Below are positions 1-31,556 of a stretch of DNA of 64,000 nt, in pieces. Both the position numbers and the translations under genes were made by a program. Position 1 is the stretch's first letter. Each line of letters begins with the position of its first letter. Origin of the DNA: Parcubacteria group bacterium (GTDB taxonomy: Bacteria; Patescibacteriota; Minisyncoccia; Moranbacterales; UBA2206); contig JBAZUU010000001.1 in assembly GCA_041661275.1 (NCBI GenBank), positions 101,057 through 165,056 on the forward strand, written 5' to 3'. Under the pieces are notes generated by a model that did no database searches, was not told where the DNA came from, and worked only from the letters and a program-made list of their open reading frames with translations.

Positions 1-393
1 AAGCACGGGCGTCAGAAACAAGGCTAAAAAAGAATAGCAGTAAAGAGATAAAAAATATGACAATATTTTTTTGTTTTGAAATCATTTTATAAATAACTAT
101 TTGTAGTAATTGATTGCAAAGGCGATACTCGTGTTATGTTTTTATTATGCCATAAATCCGGATAAATTAGAATAGTTAGTCTTAACTAATAATGCGAAAA
201 TAACAGAAAGACGAAGTAATATTAACCAAATCTACCCCTGTATCAACTCTCCCACCCACTTTAAGTAAAACTCAATATTCGGATAAGTTACACTAAGATT
301 TATTTGTCGATAATAGGACCATTTTGAGAGCAAGCAAATTGAAGGCTTATATAAGCCTTCTTTGTTTAACTATATCATTTTTTAATTAATATC

Positions 394-457
394 TTGACTT
401 TTTGTATCATAAATGATACAATTATAGTATAATTTAGAGTATAAATGATACAATTAT
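394..457 (+). promoter_or_regulatory. Putative promoter (TTGACT 394-399, 17-nt spacer, TACAAT 417-422, alternative TATAAT 428-433) with two direct repeats TAAATGATACAATTAT (about 409-426 and 441-458); the second overlaps the start codon. Candidate autoregulatory operator of the HTH-Fic gene.
   Basis: Read directly: sigma-70-like hexamers and a 16-17 bp direct repeat immediately upstream of the ORF at 456. Confidence 0.45.
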
Positions 458-1526
458 GCCAATTTATCCCAAATTAAGCGAAAGGCAAGTTGCCATTGTT
501 GATTTTGCCAAGAAGCAGATATCCTTTCAAACAAAGGACGTTTTTTCTGAAACCGGAAAAAAATTCAATGTCAAGCGACTGACTATTGTTCGCGACCTGT
601 CATTTTTAGAAGAAAATGACATATTGAAAAAGCGCGGAAAAGGAAGATCGATAGCATACGAGATTTCCCGGAAATATTTGGCGCTTGAGAAAATCGACAG
701 TAAAAAATATTTCTCTCTCCCTTTTTTAAATAGAAATGCCAAGCCGTTATTTGATGACGAAATTTTTTCTATATTGAATGACGGTCTTTTTTCACCGGAA
801 GAAATAGAAAAGTTGGAAGAAATAAATAAAAGGTATGTCGAAACAAATAGCAAGCTAGCTAAAGAAAGTCCGGTGATTCTTCGAAAAGAATGGGAACGTT
901 TGATAATAGAATTGTCATGGAAGTCTTCAGAAATTGAAGGTAATACTTATACCTTGCTCGAGACCGAGGCGCTCCTTCGCGAAATGCGTTTCGCGAAAGG
1001 TAAGGATAGGGCGGAAGCACAAATGATTTTGAACCATAAAAAAACGCTTGATTTCATTTTGGCGAATTATGATTACTTTGCCAATATCGACCTTGATAAA
1101 ATTATAAAAATCCATGAGATGCTGACGGAAAAAGTGGATATAAAAAAAGATTTTAGAGATCATCCAGTGGGAATCACCGGAACGATTTACCGGCCTTTGC
1201 CTAAAAGAAAAGATATTGAAACGGCTATGAAAAAATTGACGGAAGTTCTTGAGGCGGTAGCAAATCCATATGTCAAATCTTTTATTGTTCTCGTTATGAT
1301 TGCTTATATCCAACCATTTGAAGACGGAAACAAACGCACGTCGCGCATTGTCGCCAATGCCATTTTACATGCCCATGGCAAATCTATGCTATCCTATCGC
1401 AACGTCGACGCAATCGAGTATAAAAAAGCGATGCTTCTTTTTTATGAGCAAAATAATATTTCATATATAAAAGAAATATTCATTGCTCAATTCGAGTTCG
1501 CGGTGAAAAACTATTTTGAACAATAA
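456..1526 (+). CDS. Fic/Doc-family protein with N-terminal winged-HTH; core motif is QPFEDGNKRTSR (catalytic His replaced by Gln)
   Basis: Translation contains IAYIQPFEDGNKRTSRIVANAIL, aligning to the Fic motif HPFx(D/E)GN(G/K)R but with Q for H. The N-terminal 60 aa look like a wHTH. 356 aa. Confidence 0.75.
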   Translation: MPIYPKLSERQVAIVDFAKKQISFQTKDVFSETGKKFNVKRLTIVRDLSFLEENDILKKRGKGRSIAYEISRKYLALEKIDSKKYFSLPFLNRNAKPLFDDEIFSILNDGLFSPEEIEKLEEINKRYVETNSKLAKESPVILRKEWERLIIELSWKSSEIEGNTYTLLETEALLREMRFAKGKDRAEAQMILNHKKTLDFILANYDYFANIDLDKIIKIHEMLTEKVDIKKDFRDHPVGITGTIYRPLPKRKDIETAMKKLTEVLEAVANPYVKSFIVLVMIAYIQPFEDGNKRTSRIVANAILHAHGKSMLSYRNVDAIEYKKAMLLFYEQNNISYIKEIFIAQFEFAVKNYFEQ

Positions 1527-1540
1527 AAACTATCAGGAAC

Positions 1541-2179
1541 TTGTTGAGCATAAAAAAATCACACAAAATGTTTGGGATAGGAAAAAAAGAACTAAAAATA
1601 TTGAAAAGTCTGAACACTCCCGGAAAGATCCAGGATTTTCTGAATTTGATGCCAATGAATTTCGAGAAAAATGGAGATACCAGCCTTTCTCCTATGTCAG
1701 TTTTGGAAGAAAATACTTGTCATTGTATGGAGGGTGCGGCTCTAGCGGCTTTGGCTCTTCGGATAAATGACTACCCCCCTCTTTTAGTCGATCTTAGAGC
1801 CAACAAGAATGATTTTGACCATGTCATCGCCGTTTTTAAGCGTGACGGCAAGTGGGGTGCCATCTCAAAAACAAACCACGCTGTTCTTCGTTACCGGGAA
1901 CCGATCTACAAATCCATCAGAGAACTGGTCATGAGTTACTTCCATGAATATACGGATGATCATGGAAGAAAAAATTTGAGAAATTTCTCGCGACCCCTGA
2001 ATCTCAAAATTTTTGATAAGCTTGGTTGGATGACAACCAAAGAAGAAATTGACTACATTCCAGAATATCTTGATAAAGTCAGACACTATCCGATTTTAAA
2101 CAGAAAACAAATATGCGGACTCCGAAAGGCAGACGAGATTGAGCGTAAGGCTGGAGATATTATTGAATGGAAAAAATAG
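1541..2179 (+). CDS. Papain-like (peptidase C39-like) cysteine peptidase domain protein, co-operonic with the Fic-like gene
   Basis: Cys motif CHCMEGAALAALAL and downstream His motif DHVIAVFKRDGKW resemble the Cys/His boxes of C39-type peptidases. Starts 15 nt after the Fic stop. Alternative start MFGIGKK at 1568. Confidence 0.45.
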   Translation: MLSIKKSHKMFGIGKKELKILKSLNTPGKIQDFLNLMPMNFEKNGDTSLSPMSVLEENTCHCMEGAALAALALRINDYPPLLVDLRANKNDFDHVIAVFKRDGKWGAISKTNHAVLRYREPIYKSIRELVMSYFHEYTDDHGRKNLRNFSRPLNLKIFDKLGWMTTKEEIDYIPEYLDKVRHYPILNRKQICGLRKADEIERKAGDIIEWKK

Positions 2180-2210
2180 AGGCCTCTTTTGAGGCCTCTA
2201 TTTTTTTCCT
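2177..2210. terminator. Bidirectional rho-independent terminator (AGAGGCCTC tttt GAGGCCTCT plus T-run; A-run on the other side)
   Basis: Perfect 9-bp stem 2178-2200 flanked by T-run (plus) and A-run (minus). Lies between the convergent 1541..2179 gene and the helicase stop at 2209. Confidence 0.8.
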
Positions 2211-3414
2211 AATTCACAAAAGTCAGCGCGATTCCTTTTTGCTCCGCGCGGCCAGTGCGGCCGATGCGGTGGATATAGTCGTCATATGTCGCCGGAAGAT
2301 CAAAATTGATGACATGGCTGACGTTCGGAATATCCAAGCCTCTTGCCGCTACATCAGTGGCAACCAAAATTTCGACAACATTATCCTTGAACATTTTGAG
2401 CGCGCGTTGCCTTTTCGCTTGAGATTTATTACCATGGATACATTCTGATTTGAAACCCTTGAGATGTAAATTTTTTGACAACTTGTCCGCGCCGTGTTTG
2501 GTACGGGTAAAAATCAACACTTTTTGAAATTCCACTTGGTTCAAAAGATCGTGAAGCACTTCCGATTTATCCTTGCCCATAGTCACCCGGACGATATCCT
2601 GGTCAACAAGAGCCGAGGTTTCTCCGGTCTTTATGGAAATGCGTTCTGGATTATTCAGAAATTGTCTTGTCAAATTCTCGATCTCTCTGGAAAACGTAGC
2701 GGAAAAAAGCATCGTCTGTCTTTTTTTGGAGACGAGAGATAAAAATAATTTCACATCCGGCAAAAATCCCATATCAAACATCCGGTCAGCTTCGTCCAAA
2801 ACGATATTATTAAATCCTGATAAATTAAGCACCTTTCGGGTGATCAGATCTTTTAGACGTCCGGGTGTACCGATAACCATATTATGCCGCAATCGGAGTT
2901 CGGAAATTTGTCTTCCGATGTTAGCGCCACCAACAACAACCACGGAATAGAGGCGAAGCGCACGAGCCAAAGCGATAAATTCGTCCTGGATTTGGATAGC
3001 CAGCTCGCGAGTCGGAACAACGATAAGCACTTTTTCCCTTGGGTTCAAAAGTATTTTGTTAATCATCGGGATAAGAAAAGCGGCTGTTTTTCCAGTGCCG
3101 GTATTAGCCAGACCAATAACATCTCGCCCGGAAAGAACTGCCGGAATAGCCATATCCTGGATAGGAGTAGGCGTGACATATCCGCGGTTTTTTATCGTCT
3201 GCTTCAGTTCGCGTCGGATCTCAAGATCATTAAATGTATAACGAGGCACAAAAACTTCGACAGGTTTTAGTGCTTCAGTTTTATTGATAAAACGATTGAT
3301 GTCGATCGCATCGCCAGAAAATCGTCCTCTTTTTGGATGATTGTAACTAGTTCCTGGCGGTCTTTTCCAACCGCTAGCGGCGCGCGCCAAACGCGCGTTG
3401 TTTCTTCTTCTCAT
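2209..3414 (-). CDS. DEAD-box ATP-dependent RNA helicase (RhlE/CshA-like) with Arg/Gly-rich N-terminal extension
   Basis: Motifs TPTPIQ (Q-motif), ANTGTGKTAAF (Walker A), DEADRM, SAT and HRIGRTGRAG-like motif VI in order. 401 aa. Confidence 0.9.
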   Translation of the reverse strand: MRRRNNARLARAASGWKRPPGTSYNHPKRGRFSGDAIDINRFINKTEALKPVEVFVPRYTFNDLEIRRELKQTIKNRGYVTPTPIQDMAIPAVLSGRDVIGLANTGTGKTAAFLIPMINKILLNPREKVLIVVPTRELAIQIQDEFIALARALRLYSVVVVGGANIGRQISELRLRHNMVIGTPGRLKDLITRKVLNLSGFNNIVLDEADRMFDMGFLPDVKLFLSLVSKKRQTMLFSATFSREIENLTRQFLNNPERISIKTGETSALVDQDIVRVTMGKDKSEVLHDLLNQVEFQKVLIFTRTKHGADKLSKNLHLKGFKSECIHGNKSQAKRQRALKMFKDNVVEILVATDVAARGLDIPNVSHVINFDLPATYDDYIHRIGRTGRAEQKGIALTFVN

Positions 3415-3619
3415 TTACTTTGTCTCAAGCTCGAAGTCCAACTTTGCACCTTACAATTTTGCGCCGGAGCTTAAACATAAAAATTAATATTTTATGTTTA
3501 TATACTCCGACCATTTCAAGAAAGAAGTATTAACATAAAAAGCAAGTATATCACTCCTGACTCATCTTGTCAAGGCATCGATAGAAAAATCCAAAAAACA
3601 ATGTTAGGATAGGTTTATT

Positions 3620-4888
3620 ATGAACACCAGCAAAAAAGAGGAATATTTTGATATCGTCGTCATCGGTGGCGGGGCGGCCGGGATGATGGCAGCGATAGCT
3701 GCCAGTTTTGATGGCGCAAAAATGGCTCTGATCGAGAAAAATAGGACTCTTGGAAAAAAATTGCTTCTCACTGGCAACGGCCGGTGCAATATCACCCAGA
3801 TTAGTTTCGATACCCGCGGATTTATTGAAAAAATTGGCAAAAATGGCAGATTTCTCTTCTCTTCCCTGGCGGCTTTCGGTCCCAATGAAACAGTGGAATT
3901 TTTTGCCAGTTTAGGCCTTGAAGTGAAAACAGAAAAAAATGGCCGGGTTTTCCCAGCAAGTGACAAAGCGCAGGATGTTCTTCATGTCCTTGAAAAAGCC
4001 CTGAAAAAGAATGGGGTGAAAATTATGTTTAACCATAATGTCCTTGATCTAAAAATAAAAGATAAAAAAATAGAATACGTAGAGCTGGAAAACAAAAAGA
4101 TTTATGCCGATAATTTTATCATTACGACTGGAGGAAAATCATATCCGGTGACCGGCTCCACTGGAGACGGATACCTGTGGCTCGCGCGTATCGGACATAA
4201 AATAAATTCCCCCACTCCCGCTCTTGTGCCTGTAAAAATAGTTGAATCCTGGATCAAGGATCTGCAAGGAATAAGTCTTGCGCAGACTGGAATAAAATTG
4301 ATCCAAAATGGCAAAAAGGTGAAACTGGATCCGGGAGAGATTATTTTCACCCATTTTGGGATGAGCGGACCGGCTATCATTAATGCCAGCAAAACTATTG
4401 GCGAATATCTAAAAAAAGGCAAGGTATTCCTGGAAATTGACCTGCTCCCCACTCTGGGCATAGCCGAACTGGAAGAAAAATTAAAAAAAGACTTTGAGAT
4501 ACATAAGAAAAAAGATCTAAAAAATTATTTATCAGAAATATTTCCACGAAAGTTAGCAGTAAAATTGATAGAACTGTCCGGAATAGAAATTACCAGAAAA
4601 ATTTACACAATTGCAAAATCAGAAAGAAACAACTTGGCCCGACTGATAAAAAATATTTGTGTAACTGTCAACGCGCTTTTGGATTTCGGGAGCGCCATGA
4701 TAACTTCCGGCGGAGTGGATCTAAAAGAAGTTGAACCCAAGACAATGCGTTCAAAGATCGTCCCTAATCTATTTTTAGCCGGAGAAATTTTGGATCTCGA
4801 TGGCCCGACTGGCGGATATAATCTGCAGATCGCCTGGACAACAGGACGCACGGCTGGCATCAGCGCGAGAGACAAAAAAGGCCTCTAA
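3620..4888 (+). CDS. BaiN/HI0933-like NAD(FAD)-utilizing flavoprotein (aminoacetone oxidase family)
   Basis: N-terminal FAD fold VVIGGGAAGMMAAI plus TGNGRCN motif typical of the HI0933/YhiN family. 422 aa. Confidence 0.8.
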   Translation: MNTSKKEEYFDIVVIGGGAAGMMAAIAASFDGAKMALIEKNRTLGKKLLLTGNGRCNITQISFDTRGFIEKIGKNGRFLFSSLAAFGPNETVEFFASLGLEVKTEKNGRVFPASDKAQDVLHVLEKALKKNGVKIMFNHNVLDLKIKDKKIEYVELENKKIYADNFIITTGGKSYPVTGSTGDGYLWLARIGHKINSPTPALVPVKIVESWIKDLQGISLAQTGIKLIQNGKKVKLDPGEIIFTHFGMSGPAIINASKTIGEYLKKGKVFLEIDLLPTLGIAELEEKLKKDFEIHKKKDLKNYLSEIFPRKLAVKLIELSGIEITRKIYTIAKSERNNLARLIKNICVTVNALLDFGSAMITSGGVDLKEVEPKTMRSKIVPNLFLAGEILDLDGPTGGYNLQIAWTTGRTAGISARDKKGL

Positions 4889-4910
4889 TAAGCCATGCCA
4901 TAAACATCGC

Positions 4911-4939
4911 TTGACAAATGCCCATAATAGACATATAAT
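4911..4939 (+). promoter_or_regulatory. Consensus sigma-70 promoter for cspA (TTGACA 4911-4916, 17 nt, TATAAT 4934-4939), followed by an approximately 100-nt 5'UTR
   Basis: Perfect -35/-10 hexamers with 17-nt spacing. Long leaders are typical of cold-shock genes. Confidence 0.65.
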
Positions 4940-5039
4940 TGGTTACAAGTCCCAATAAGCATGCAGGTAGAAGACTAGTCGAACTTTTTTGCACAGCTTC
5001 CAATGGTACTAAATTTAATTAAAATATTGTCTATTACAA

Positions 5040-5243
5040 ATGGAACAAGGAACAATCAAAAGACTGACTGACCGAGGATTTGGCTTCATTGCCAGAGAAG
5101 GTCAGGACAAAGATCTTTTTTTCCACTCAAAAGAACTTCAGGGCGTGACCTTTGAAGAACTGCGAGAAGGTGACAAAGTTCAGTTCGAAGTGGCTGAAGG
5201 CCCTAAAGGACCGAACGCTGTCAACGTATCAAAAGTTGCCTAA
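5040..5243 (+). CDS. cspA: Cold-shock protein (CspA family, S1-like cold-shock domain)
   Basis: RGFGFI and LFFHxSEL RNP-like motifs. 67 aa. Confidence 0.9.
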   Translation: MEQGTIKRLTDRGFGFIAREGQDKDLFFHSKELQGVTFEELREGDKVQFEVAEGPKGPNAVNVSKVA

Positions 5244-5261
5244 ACACTTTTGAAGTATTTA

Positions 5262-5298
5262 ACAAAAACCACCCTGTGAAAGCGGGGTGGTTTTTTGT
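5262..5298 (+). terminator. Rho-independent terminator (CCACCC ... GGGTGG plus T-run)
   Basis: Hairpin 5269-5290 followed by TTTTTT. Confidence 0.8.
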
Positions 5299-5309
5299 TT
5301 TATTATCTT

Positions 5310-5455: not shown

Positions 5456-5956
5456 CTATTTCACCGGAATATTTTTCTCCATTTCTTTTTGAAATTCTTC
5501 CGGATCAGGCATGCTTTCCCGAAAATCCTGTGATTTTTTCTCCCACTCTTCGCTTTCTTTACTAAATTTATCAGCACTTTCCTCTATCTCATTTAGGATC
5601 GAGTTATTATTTATCCGATTATTTATTTCTTTTTTCGCTTCCCTTATTCCCCACCATCCGAGACCAACTACGGCAACTAATATAAGAATGACGATCAAAA
5701 GACATCCGCCGATGATCCACGGCCAAGGACTGCTGGATTTAGGAGGCACAGGAGTTGCTGGCGGCGCAGCTGGCGCGGGCGGGTAATAAACAGGAGGAGG
5801 GGTCGGAGTTGGTTGAGGTGCTGGCGGCGGCATTACTGGAGCTAGTGGTGGAGCGGGCATCGGTTGCGGCGTCATCGGAGCTGGTGCCATCGGTTGAGGA
5901 ACCACTGGCGGTGGCGCCACCGGAGCTGGCGCGGGAGCTTGGTTTTGTTGTTCCAT
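5456..5956 (-). CDS. Proline-rich single-pass membrane protein (hypothetical)
   Basis: N-terminal PAPAPVAPPPVVP low-complexity region, one TM helix, acidic C-terminal tail. 166 aa. Codon-level repeats. Confidence 0.5.
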   Translation of the reverse strand: MEQQNQAPAPAPVAPPPVVPQPMAPAPMTPQPMPAPPLAPVMPPPAPQPTPTPPPVYYPPAPAAPPATPVPPKSSSPWPWIIGGCLLIVILILVAVVGLGWWGIREAKKEINNRINNNSILNEIEESADKFSKESEEWEKKSQDFRESMPDPEEFQKEMEKNIPVK

Positions 5957-6423: not shown

Positions 6424-6500
6424 TAGATTATTGTTAACGTGTTGACAATAGCATTAACGTATGTTAACATAGTGACAGAGAAGTTAACTAATATAAAGCC
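6424..6500 (+). promoter_or_regulatory. Promoter/operator with clustered GTTAAC half-sites (TTGTTAACgtGTTGACAatagcaTTAACgtatGTTAACAtagtgacagagaaGTTAACtaat); TTGACA at 6442-6447
   Basis: Five GTTAAC/TTAAC palindromic motifs within 70 bp upstream of the HTH-Doc operon. Confidence 0.4.
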
Positions 6501-6507
6501 CTTGTTT

Positions 6508-6765
6508 GTGAGTAAAAATGGCTTTTTTTCAACAACTGAAGCAGCAAAAATACTCGGAATCAGCCGGATTGCCGTGTTTAACCGTGTAAAAAGAGGCTCT
6601 CTGAAAGCTATCCGGATAGGCAAAAACTGGGCAATTCCCAAGGAAGAGCTGGAAAATAATCTGGGTCGTCCGCTAAGCGAGGAGGAAAAACGAATATTGT
6701 TAGAGGGTGTCCGTAAAGTTATTGCCGAATATGGAGAAACTTTGCGGAGACTAGGCAAAGAATAG
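6508..6765 (+). CDS. HTH_17/excisionase-type DNA-binding protein; putative antitoxin of the downstream Doc toxin
   Basis: STTEAAKILGISRIAVFNRVKRGSLKAIRIGKNWAIPKEEL is a MerR/excisionase-family HTH. Stop is 2 nt before the Doc start. The start codon is uncertain (GTG 6508, TTG 6502 or GTG 6439). Confidence 0.6.
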   Translation: MSKNGFFSTTEAAKILGISRIAVFNRVKRGSLKAIRIGKNWAIPKEELENNLGRPLSEEEKRILLEGVRKVIAEYGETLRRLGKE

Positions 6766-6767
6766 TT

Positions 6768-7190
6768 ATGATCAAAAGACTGACGATCATCGAAATAGAA
6801 TTCATCGCTCACGCGATGGCCAGGGAAACATTGGCGTGGAACGAACCGATCCCCGACTTTTCAACGCGCTATCCGGGAAAACTGGAAAGTTGCCTGGCGA
6901 TGCCGTTTCAAAAATTTTCCAGAAAAAATTTATATGAAGGTCTTATTGGAAAGGCAGCCATTATGTTCTATCTGATGATTAAAAATCATCCCTTTCAAAA
7001 CGGCAACAAGCGTATCGCGGTCACTACGCTTCTTTTGCTTCTCTACAAAAATGGAAAGTGGATCAGCGCTTCCAATGAAACTTTATATCGGTTCGCTGTT
7101 CTCGTCGCCCAAAGTCCGGCTGAACTGAAAAAAGAAATTGTCATTCTCATTGAAAATTTCTTGGAGAAATATGTGAAAGATGCAAAATAG
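6768..7190 (+). CDS. doc: Doc (death-on-curing) family toxin, Fic fold with HPFQNGNKR motif
   Basis: Canonical Doc motif NHPFQNGNKRIAVT. 140 aa. Adjacent to a small DNA-binding partner. Confidence 0.8.
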   Translation: MIKRLTIIEIEFIAHAMARETLAWNEPIPDFSTRYPGKLESCLAMPFQKFSRKNLYEGLIGKAAIMFYLMIKNHPFQNGNKRIAVTTLLLLLYKNGKWISASNETLYRFAVLVAQSPAELKKEIVILIENFLEKYVKDAK

Positions 7191-30966: not shown

Positions 30967-31076
30967 ATTATTTAATTACACTTAAATTGTACCAAAATGA
31001 CGATATATAGCAAACGCCTGCCCGATGTACCCAGGGTATGATATAATAATTATAGTTTTATAAATAATACAATTAT

Positions 31077-31556
31077 ATGATAGATATTTCTCAATACTAC
31101 GTATTTCTCATTCCTATCGCCATAGGAACTTTGATCCATGCCATCAAATTCATCCTTTATCTCCTGCGCCATGATTATAACTGGAAGCTGGCTATTGAAC
31201 ATGGCCTGACCTATGGCCATATGCCATCATCGCACACCGGTTTTGCCATCTCCCTCATAACTTCTGTCGGACACTACGAGGGAATCAGCACGGGAGCCTT
31301 TGCTGTCGCCGTAGCTTTGGCTATTTTTATTATTGACGACGCTATCCGGTTACGCATCCAGATGGGGCACCAGGCCAGATATATGAATATTATGACCCAA
31401 AAACTGGAGCTTGACCCGAAGGAATTCCCACGCCTGAAAGAACGAGTGGGACATAAAAAAATAGAAGTGCTGGTGGGTGGAATATTAGGACTTTTGTTTA
31501 CTCTCGCATTGATACGACTTTTAGAAATTTACCCTTTGCCTATTATAACTTTTTAA
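31077..31556 (+). CDS. Divergent PAP2 (DUF212) family membrane protein
   Basis: YGHMPSSHTGF plus DDAIRLRIQMGHQARY motif arrangement typical of the divergent PAP2 family. 159 aa. Confidence 0.65.
   Translation: MIDISQYYVFLIPIAIGTLIHAIKFILYLLRHDYNWKLAIEHGLTYGHMPSSHTGFAISLITSVGHYEGISTGAFAVAVALAIFIIDDAIRLRIQMGHQARYMNIMTQKLELDPKEFPRLKERVGHKKIEVLVGGILGLLFTLALIRLLEIYPLPIITF

Follow-up and report, generated by a model that had tools for sequence, protein, structure and literature searches.

A Fic protein with glutamine at the catalytic histidine position, its putative operator array and its likely accidental adjacency to a CPR-C4-family protease gene

The stretch of DNA considered here, referred to as the window, consists of 64,000 nucleotides (nt) from a Parcubacteria group bacterium (assembly GCA_041661275.1, contig JBAZUU010000001.1, positions 101,057 to 165,056 of the forward strand). 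Near its left end lies a gene for a Fic protein that carries glutamine where the catalytic histidine is expected, here termed Fic(Q), and directly behind it a gene for a cysteine protease, here termed gene 2. Relatives of both proteins have been described. A clade of 45 bacterial Fic sequences with the consensus Qx[F/Y]x[D/E][G/V]NKR was named D2 in a study whose authors suggested that these proteins might keep some function and are perhaps not catalytically dead, with no function assigned (Khater & Mohanty 2015, PMC4454073). Among class II Fic proteins, in which an inhibitory Glu-Arg pair blocks productive ATP binding, CccR of Yersinia pseudotuberculosis carries a C-terminal helix-turn-helix (HTH) and has been demonstrated experimentally to repress its own promoter via a palindrome (PMC9755527). 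On the protease side, CPR-C4 is a published cysteine protease of bacteria of the candidate phyla radiation (CPR), which shows remote structural similarity to human vasohibins and possesses a Cys61-His93-Leu115(carbonyl) triad, and for which the gene neighbourhood gave its authors no hint of function (Cornish et al. 2022, PMC9108980).

An original prediction, made from the letters of the window, had proposed that the two genes could constitute a module of a toxin and its processing enzyme, or a novel accessory system. The comparison with related loci leads to a different reading, which is considered likely: two functionally independent genes would have come to lie side by side through lineage-specific cassette replacement, with Fic(Q) acting as a solitary, self-repressing gene and gene 2 being expressed by read-through. 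The Gln-variant Fic clade is already on record in silico (2015) and CPR-C4 experimentally, and literature on the characterisation of HTH-Fic(Q) proteins was found to comprise only the 2015 in silico report, with CccR as a functional analogue. New here are the origin of the adjacency in a cassette swap, the architecture with an N-terminal winged helix-turn-helix (wHTH), an account of how large and how widespread the clade is, and an array of operator sites that is conserved and co-varies.

Gene 2 and the neighbourhood of the pair

The Fic(Q) gene, open reading frame (ORF) 1, occupies positions 456-1526 of the plus strand, on which all features below lie unless stated otherwise, and encodes 356 amino acids (aa); its assignment draws on Pfam, phmmer searches against PDB, an AlphaFold2 model and Foldseek. 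Gene 2 follows at 1568-2179. Its start is likelier to be ATG 1568, which corresponds to the deposited call of 203 aa and lies 10 nt downstream of the point at which homology to a related locus, L021, begins, and the alternative is TTG 1541. The original prediction had counted 15 nt between the two genes; the close spacing stands, and the distance from the stop codon of ORF 1 is 14 nt to TTG 1541 and 41 nt to the likelier ATG 1568. The DNA is AT-rich, and all sequence features that had been quoted for the locus were found in its letters.

The assignment of gene 2 to the CPR-C4 family was obtained from a full-length match to PDB entries 7OB6/7PJO (E 1.7e-57). The boxes CHCMEGAALAALAL and DHVIAVF fall on the catalytic residues of CPR-C4, Cys61 and His93, the triad is identical to C61/H93/L115 (Cys codon at 1724-1726, His codon at 1820-1822), and the three Zn-binding aspartates, D83/D92/D182, are aligned and identical as well, such that full-length similarity, triad and tri-Asp zinc site, the characteristics of CPR-C4 and vasohibin-like proteases, are all present. 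These boxes had previously been described as C39-like. They are the true catalytic boxes, because they align with the Cys61-His93-Leu115 triad, and it is the family that has to be corrected, from C39 to CPR-C4. No C39 profile matched gene 2 at E <= 1 in Pfam, and none in NCBIfam. The candidate profiles C39, BtrH and transglutaminase were accordingly rejected; a sub-threshold Vasohibin match (E 0.032) was the only one in Pfam, and the PDB search settles the assignment. The C4 family is very abundant and strongly conserved in the CPR, with 7534 matches, many above 70% identity, and no match to it was obtained in PHROGs or PADLOC.

The conservation of the gene pair was surveyed in 98 Fic(Q) loci, collected by a single-protein scan of genome contigs (18 loci) and an alignment query of metagenomes. 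In none of the 98 was a C4 gene detected by tblastn within flanks of 3.5-4 kb, and conversely no Fic gene was found in five contexts, from four homologues, of the closest C4 relatives (81-88% identity). The nearest Fic(Q) relatives have other neighbours altogether: at 87% identity (P0002) the gene is followed by an 860-nt gap and then chitinase fragments, at 81% (P0003) by a NUDIX gene, and at 80% and 78%, in two paralogues on one contig (P0005 and P0006), by RibD_C and a convergent DUF218 gene, respectively. These two paralogues lie 2.2 kb apart on a 16-kb CPR contig from JGI; the PIF1-helicase and SEC-C genes upstream of them also adjoin P0003 on another contig, and on the 16-kb contig a 3-dmu-9_3-mt gene lies downstream of a Fic(Q) paralogue, at a distance of two genes.

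A wider view of the neighbourhoods gives the same result. A gene start could be defined for 86 loci, of which 68 have at least 700 nt of downstream and 64 at least 700 nt of upstream sequence. All-against-all clustering of the flanking ORFs yielded no conserved partner, the largest cluster having three members, and none of the 141 Pfam families present in the 128 flanking ORFs recurs more than three times. The flanking genes are mostly housekeeping genes (ribosomal L20, Lgt, LspA, TruB, tRNA synthetases), and a PADLOC analysis of the 128 neighbours gave no defence-island signal, identifying only two methylases and two DUF4143-type ATPases. By this comparison, Fic(Q) is a solitary gene. The conserved adjacency that would define a two-gene Fic-protease module is absent from every relative examined, and the toxin and processing-enzyme module of the original prediction is thereby contradicted.

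The way in which the two genes became neighbours can be traced through L021, whose C4 protein is 88% identical to that of the window. Window positions 1558-5301 correspond to L021 3991-7685 at 84% nucleotide identity, a block that includes C4, a convergent DEAD-box helicase gene, a gene for an HI0933-like flavoprotein and one for a cold-shock protein. On the other side, a 119-nt conserved non-coding element at 220-338 (82% nucleotide identity to L021 2245-2363) forms the left edge of a variable slot, and it is closed by a terminator at 341-367, a hairpin with a U-tract (-11 kcal/mol, z -4.0). Between these flanks, window 339-1557 stands against L021 2364-3990: the window contains 1.2 kb with promoter, operator and Fic(Q), whereas L021 contains 1.6 kb with a glyoxalase-like 3-dmu-9_3-mt gene, a divergent pair of XRE-HTH (HTH_3) and DUF2975 genes and, immediately before C4, a promoter TGGTATAAT. 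As judged from this alignment, the arrival of Fic(Q) is a cassette replacement at the variable slot. Gene 2 would thus represent a core, syntenic protease whose original promoter region gave way to the Fic(Q) cassette.

Two observations concern the left flank itself. The terminator hairpins that follow the element share the same site (window 220-367 versus L021 2245-2390), and their stems differ wholly, GAAGGCTTAT/ATAAGCCTTC in the window and TTACGTAAT/ATTACGTAA in L021. The element has no match in Rfam and its fold is not significant (z-score -1.6); a small RNA and a conserved 3' untranslated region are both conceivable.

The co-transcription of Fic(Q) and C4 that had been asserted earlier is plausible in this genome. 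Neither a consensus promoter nor a hairpin was found in the 41-nt gap at 1527-1567 (-1.9 kcal/mol, z 0.06), and a single strong terminator, a hairpin with a U-tract at 2172-2208 (-23.2 kcal/mol, z -7.4), overlaps the stop codon of C4 and is directed towards the convergent gene for the DEAD-box helicase. In L021 the promoter of C4 lies in the region that was lost through the swap, and read-through from the promoter of Fic(Q) therefore probably accounts for C4 transcription in the window; this would be a by-product of the insertion and not a designed pairing.

The promoter region and its operator array

Within positions 1-2400 of the window, the best sigma-70-like match is TTGACT-17-TG-n-TACAAT (10/12, with TG), corresponding to a predicted promoter at 394-422 with a -35 element TTGACT at 394-399, a 17-nt spacer, TG at 414-415 and a -10 element TACAAT at 417-422. 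Two copies of a repeat, one of them overlapping the ATG, had already been pointed out in this region, and both are present: the 17-nt direct repeat ATAAATGATACAATTAT has exact copies at 409-425 and 441-457, at a spacing of 32 nt, with the second copy covering the ATG at 456. A palindrome and a fourth half-site can be added to these copies. Around a dyad centre at 411.5, TTGTATCAT (402-410) and ATGATACAA (413-421) compose an inner palindromic operator without strand polarity, TTGTATCAT-aa-ATGATACAA at 402-421, which is perfect (9+9 nt, 100% complementary), lies between -35 and -10 and overlaps the latter. It is accompanied by outer arms at 367-380 and 443-456 that are 86% complementary. The left arm, AAATGATATAGTTA on the minus strand (12/14 match), is a fourth, imperfect inverted copy, and the right arm belongs to direct-repeat copy 2, which thus supplies the outer-right half-site. 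In this way, four half-sites with the core ATGATACAA are placed symmetrically around the Fic(Q) promoter.

This layout is retained in the family. Relatives whose proteins are 87, 67 and 60% identical keep all four half-sites, with diverging spacers and an invariant second direct-repeat copy; CTTGAC and TACAAT are likewise kept in relatives, and a TTGTATCAT-like sequence at the outer-left site is conserved in L107, L024 and L002. Phased direct repeats, defined as repeats of at least 10 nt with one mismatch allowed, a spacing of 21-23 or 31-33 nt and a position no more than 120 nt upstream of the start codon, were detected in 59 of 80 loci, compared with 2.5 expected from shuffled controls, and the spacing is exactly 22 nt, or two helical turns, in 52 of these 59. 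The usual arrangement in the family is a palindrome with one more copy beside the ATG.

The operator also varies together with the protein that would bind it. Residues ~9-70 of Fic(Q) (480-665) form an N-terminal wHTH with a recognition helix at residues ~41-53 (KRLTIVRDLSFLE), in which T43 and R46 are invariant in the family. Helices of the type (R/K)-h-T-h-x-R-D are associated with the operator core GATAC(A/G)A in 21 of 36 loci, RETITRD with GACGCAA in 4/4, ATxKR with TGAGC(T/C) in 21/21, PTLNRD with GATAGGA in 3/3 and VTLRRK with TGAT(T/C)GATAA in 2/2. Across these loci, operator class tracks recognition-helix class. Such a pattern is what would be expected if the wHTH binds the half-sites and represses its own promoter, and the family comparison therefore lends strong support to the earlier suggestion of autoregulation by the wHTH of the Fic protein itself. 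On this comparative basis, Fic(Q) would be a self-contained unit, its N-terminal winged helix occupying four phased half-sites over its own -35 and -10 elements and start codon, and this binding would repress its own transcription.

Within the 64 kb, the 14-mer operator core is exact only at the two repeat copies. Other matches are near-matches, at 31062-31075 and in a coding region at 4111-4124, and their count is within chance. The site at 31062-31075 (AAATAATACAATTA) stands singly, deviates from the operator by one mismatch and immediately precedes the ATG of a gene for a DUF212 (divergent PAP2) membrane protein (31077-31556); a promoter-like element TATGATATAAT lies before the site.

The Fic core, its glutamine and the possible functions

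The description of ORF 1 as a 356-aa HTH-Fic protein is borne out by the match to Pfam Fic PF02661 (55.5 bits, cutoff 24) and by the wHTH seen in the AlphaFold2 model. The translation contains MIAYIQPFEDGNKRTSRIVA, and in the phmmer search against PDB, residues 119-323 align to human FICD (E 1.7e-10), with 'yiQpfedgnKrtsr' falling on 'yiHpfidgnGrtsr' and 'SSEIEGN' on the inhibitory-helix 'TVAIEGN'. The motif register is correct, because the alignment matches both the Fic motif and the inhibitory helix, and glutamine at the position of the catalytic histidine is thereby verified: Gln286 (CAA, 1311-1313) aligns to His363 of FICD. The Fic motif QPFEDGNKRTSR (1311-1346) further carries Lys293 at the position of the second glycine, as in Doc, and keeps the final Arg297. 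Upstream of it lie the class II-type inhibitory-helix motif SSEIEGN (S157-N163, 924-944), whose Glu161 is aligned to FICD TVAIE234GN, and the flap region R234 ... V238-G-I-x-G-T-x-Y-x-P247 (1155-1196), whose invariant columns align to the FICD flap.

The AlphaFold2 model, computed with 40 homologues as input (pLDDT 93, pTM 0.91), consists of an N-terminal winged helix of the order H-H-H-b-b (residues 9-70) and, behind it, a Fic core made up entirely of helices. Foldseek against PDB ranks FICD first (E 1.4e-9), followed by BT_2513, SoFic and CbFic2, with a probability of 1.00 to the first three, and all four are class II Fic proteins. ORF 1 is accordingly a Fic/Fido protein in profile and fold that lacks the invariant catalytic His of HxFx(D/E)GN(G/K)R. 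It shows the class II features in sequence, namely an inhibitory helix N-terminal to the motif in the same chain and a pairing second Arg, and it is not a Doc toxin, with 14.6 bits against TIGR01550 (cutoff 38.65), Gln, a final Arg and no conserved neighbour. The N-terminal wHTH gives weak DeoR, Penicillinase_R and ArgR profile matches. A profile of residues 4-71 weakly matches the C-terminal wHTH of CbFic2 from Coxiella (PDB 8CIL_A 300-370, E 0.016), as well as ArgR, BlaI and MecI, which hints that the Fic(Q) and CbFic2 groups may carry the same DNA-binding domain on opposite sides of the Fic core.

The glutamine is a property of a whole family. Q-x-F-x-D-G-N-K-R-x-x-R is present in 120/120 best homologues, and Gln occupies the catalytic position in 98/98 related loci from genome and metagenome collections. 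Among the 150 best cluster representatives of an exhaustive hidden Markov model (HMM) search, it occurs in all full-length cluster representatives except three, two with a degenerate motif (P0315, P0372) and one with no alignable motif (P0380). Across 99 loci the codon is CAA in 51 and CAG in 48, and never CAC or CAT, though a single transversion would give His. Over 2272 bp, the locus is 100% identical in an independent Logan assembly (L103). A sequencing or assembly error of CAC to CAA, for which a check had been suggested, is ruled out by this identical assembly, the family-wide Gln and the use of both Gln codons with never a His codon. At E <= 1e-30, the HMM search gives the family a size of at least 578 clusters of 50% identity. 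Its other invariant columns include S157, S158, I160 and E161; R234 and V238-G-I-x-G-T-x-Y-x-P247; and D290-G-N-K-R-T and R297. Strict selection for Gln at the His position in the Fic(Q) clade is shown by this family-wide alignment, as is strong purifying selection on the flap, on the residues that line the pocket and on the inhibitory pair of Glu and Arg.

Variation is found in the second half of the motif, where G, V, I, L or A may occupy the variable position of QxFxD[G/V]NKR. The distant D-V-NKR and D-I-NKR relatives include genes from cultured bacteria, namely Sulfitobacter, Aeromonas caviae and Bacteroides finegoldii, in which they lie on plasmids or chromosomes. The proteobacterial ones (L105 3375-4712 on a Sulfitobacter plasmid; L106 of Aeromonas caviae) are ~440-470 aa long with a ~90-aa C-terminal extension, and the Sulfitobacter gene, which adjoins ScpB-like and TerB-N genes, is preceded by three ATCGTTTC repeats. 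In two of the 98 Fic(Q) loci (L082 ~6243 and L094 ~5408), a canonical HPFxDGNGR Fic protein is encoded ~2 kb or less downstream.

Since canonical AMP or phosphoryl transfer needs His as the general base, and a Doc-type Lys accompanies the Gln that replaces it, a role of Fic(Q) as a canonical AMP-transferase is unlikely. The Glu of the inhibitory helix, the flap, the Asp that binds Mg, the phosphate-binding loop and the final Arg are all retained in its Fic domain, and the pocket most likely would still bind a nucleotide or phospho-ligand. The reading adopted here is that of a self-repressing DNA-binding protein with a ligand-binding, non-AMPylating Fic(Q) module, standing beside C4 by gene swap. 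Several points weigh against this reading in one or another of its parts. Strict conservation of Gln and pocket fits Gln-dependent catalysis as well as ligand binding. The operator and helix classes were defined after inspection of the same loci, and shared ancestry inflates their association; against the latter, L102, L049, L052 and L075 (~42-46% identity to the window) keep an identical operator and the same helix type, and in L026 and L030 (~47-48%) operator and helix have both changed. The phased repeat, by the criterion used, is absent from 21 of the 80 loci, and the search for further operator sites covered 64 kb of the genome. Finally, a weak internal promoter of C4 may lie inside the 3' end of gene 1.

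Against this background, other explanations can be weighed. The main rival is that Fic(Q) is an enzyme with non-canonical chemistry, in which the Doc-type Lys would invert the nucleotide and Gln286 would position a water molecule as in GTPases, resulting in hydrolysis of nucleoside triphosphates or removal of a phospho- or nucleotidyl modification, with the wHTH setting the dose. A Gln that is strictly invariant and not drifting, encoded by both codons, speaks for it, together with the invariance of the Asp, the GNKR loop, Arg297, the flap and the inhibitory Glu and the argument of Khater & Mohanty that the clade may not be catalytically dead (PMC4454073); yet no alternative general base was found in Fic(Q), and the retained Glu161-Arg297 pair is of the kind that blocks productive ATP binding in class II Fic proteins, so that this explanation is possible but on balance unlikely. 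It is rather less probable that Fic(Q) is a single-gene toxin, an anti-phage defence gene of the SoFic type or a mobile accessory gene silenced by autorepression. The best PADLOC model is indeed SoFic (E 1e-21), candidate PDC-S04 models match too, and the patchy presence at a variable slot, the two paralogues on one contig, the relatives on plasmids near integrases and a logic of autorepression like that of toxin-antitoxin modules and CccR are in keeping with such a role. However, the PADLOC match reflects generic Fic homology, the His required for SoFic and CccR toxicity is absent, the flanks are mostly housekeeping genes with methylases at 2/128 and no defence-island signal, and phage matches amount to two, both weak.

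The remaining two rivals give the downstream gene a part. A local transcription factor that controls the gene behind it, here C4, with the Fic domain as a ligand sensor, would agree with the apparent dependence of C4 on the Fic(Q) promoter in the window and with a co-directional ORF at 60 nt or less in 12 of 86 loci. The downstream ORF is nevertheless convergent in 26 loci and more than 150 nt away in 23, the downstream genes are unrelated housekeeping genes, and in all subclades the operator is located at the promoter of Fic(Q) itself, which makes this explanation improbable. Least credible of all, and very improbable, is the functional two-gene module of toxin and processing enzyme, or new accessory system. 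The two genes share a strand, a 41-nt gap without terminator or consensus promoter, and common flanking terminators; against these stand the absence of the pair from all 98 Fic(Q) loci and from all five closest C4 contexts examined, the different neighbours of Fic(Q) relatives at 87-78% identity, the presence in L021 of C4 with its own promoter behind different upstream genes at the same chromosomal spot, and the similarly uninformative neighbourhood reported for CPR-C4 (PMC9108980). Beyond the adopted reading of a self-repressing protein with a ligand-binding module, a bolder and distinctly speculative proposal may be put forward: the QxFxD[G/V]NKRxxR clade might be a distinct Fido functional class whose pocket, through the changes of His to Gln and Gly to Lys, acts as a nucleotide-sensing or nucleotide-hydrolysing switch controlling oligomerisation and DNA binding of the wHTH. 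Its members would then be transcription factors with a Fic fold and not enzymes that modify proteins, and horizontal transfer would have carried them across CPR, Bacteroidota and Proteobacteria.

Elsewhere in the window, a 140-aa Doc-type Fic gene at 6768-7190 has an intact His (HPFQNGNKR, no final Arg) and serves as an internal control; an HTH_17/AbiEi_4-like gene at 6439-6765 immediately precedes it, giving a canonical toxin-antitoxin-like pair (6439-7190). A His-type Doc and a Gln-type Fic are thus both present in one 64 kb. On the minus strand, 5456-5956 encodes a 166-aa ORF whose N-terminal half is extremely rich in Pro and Ala (APAPAPVAPPPVVPQPMAP); behind this half come a predicted membrane helix and a tail of charged residues.

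Comparison with described systems

The significance of these results differs between the two genes. The Fic-protease module appears as an accident of local gene swap, by which a false lead is removed, and the neighbourhood of CPR-C4 is still silent on the substrate of the protease. For the Fic protein, the clade without His that was noted in 2015 proves to be large, strictly selected for Gln and fused to a wHTH, with a co-varying operator on its own promoter, and the conservation and co-variation of this array make autoregulation directly testable.

Compared with CPR-C4 (PDB 7OB6/7OB7/7PJO), gene 2 displays no functional difference; it sits directly behind Fic(Q), and its relatives do not. The closest match of Fic(Q) in both sequence and structure is FICD/HYPE (PDB 6I7K, 4U04), with which it shares the EGNT motif, the flap and the xPFxDGNxRTSR loop, whereas FICD possesses TPR repeats in place of the wHTH, has His363 and Gly, and is a proven AMPylase and deAMPylase. 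With the Doc toxin of phage P1 (TIGR01550), Fic(Q) shares the GNKR loop and the Lys for the second Gly. In Doc, the GNKR loop goes with inverted ATP and kinase activity. Unlike Fic(Q), Doc keeps the catalytic His, is without the final Arg, the flap and the intramolecular inhibitory helix, and has a separate Phd antitoxin.

The CccR, SoFic and CbFic2 group resembles Fic(Q) in joining a class II Fic domain with N-terminal inhibitory helix and a DNA-binding HTH in one polypeptide, and the two features of a CccR-like HTH-Fic autorepressor, an HTH in the chain and a palindromic operator in its own promoter, are found by sequence in Fic(Q) with the domain order reversed. The members of this group have a C-terminal HTH, the canonical HxFxxGNGRxxR and demonstrated His-dependent AMPylation; Fic(Q), in contrast, has an N-terminal HTH, Gln for His and Lys for Gly. 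With the D2 clade, Fic(Q) has in common the Gln for the catalytic His, the same consensus and a bacteria-only distribution, and QPFEDGNKR of the window conforms to the D2 motif, as do the distant relatives with D-V-NKR, the assignment being made by motif and not by comparison with the 45 sequences. D2 as published consists of these 45 sequences, 'usually single-domain' and grouped with Doc, whereas the Fic(Q) family delineated here comprises at least 578 clusters and, unlike the D2 description, has an N-terminal wHTH, a class II inhibitory helix, a flap and a final Arg. By Foldseek, Fic(Q) is structurally nearer to FICD and SoFic than to Doc, and the operator arrays that characterise it are absent from the description of D2.

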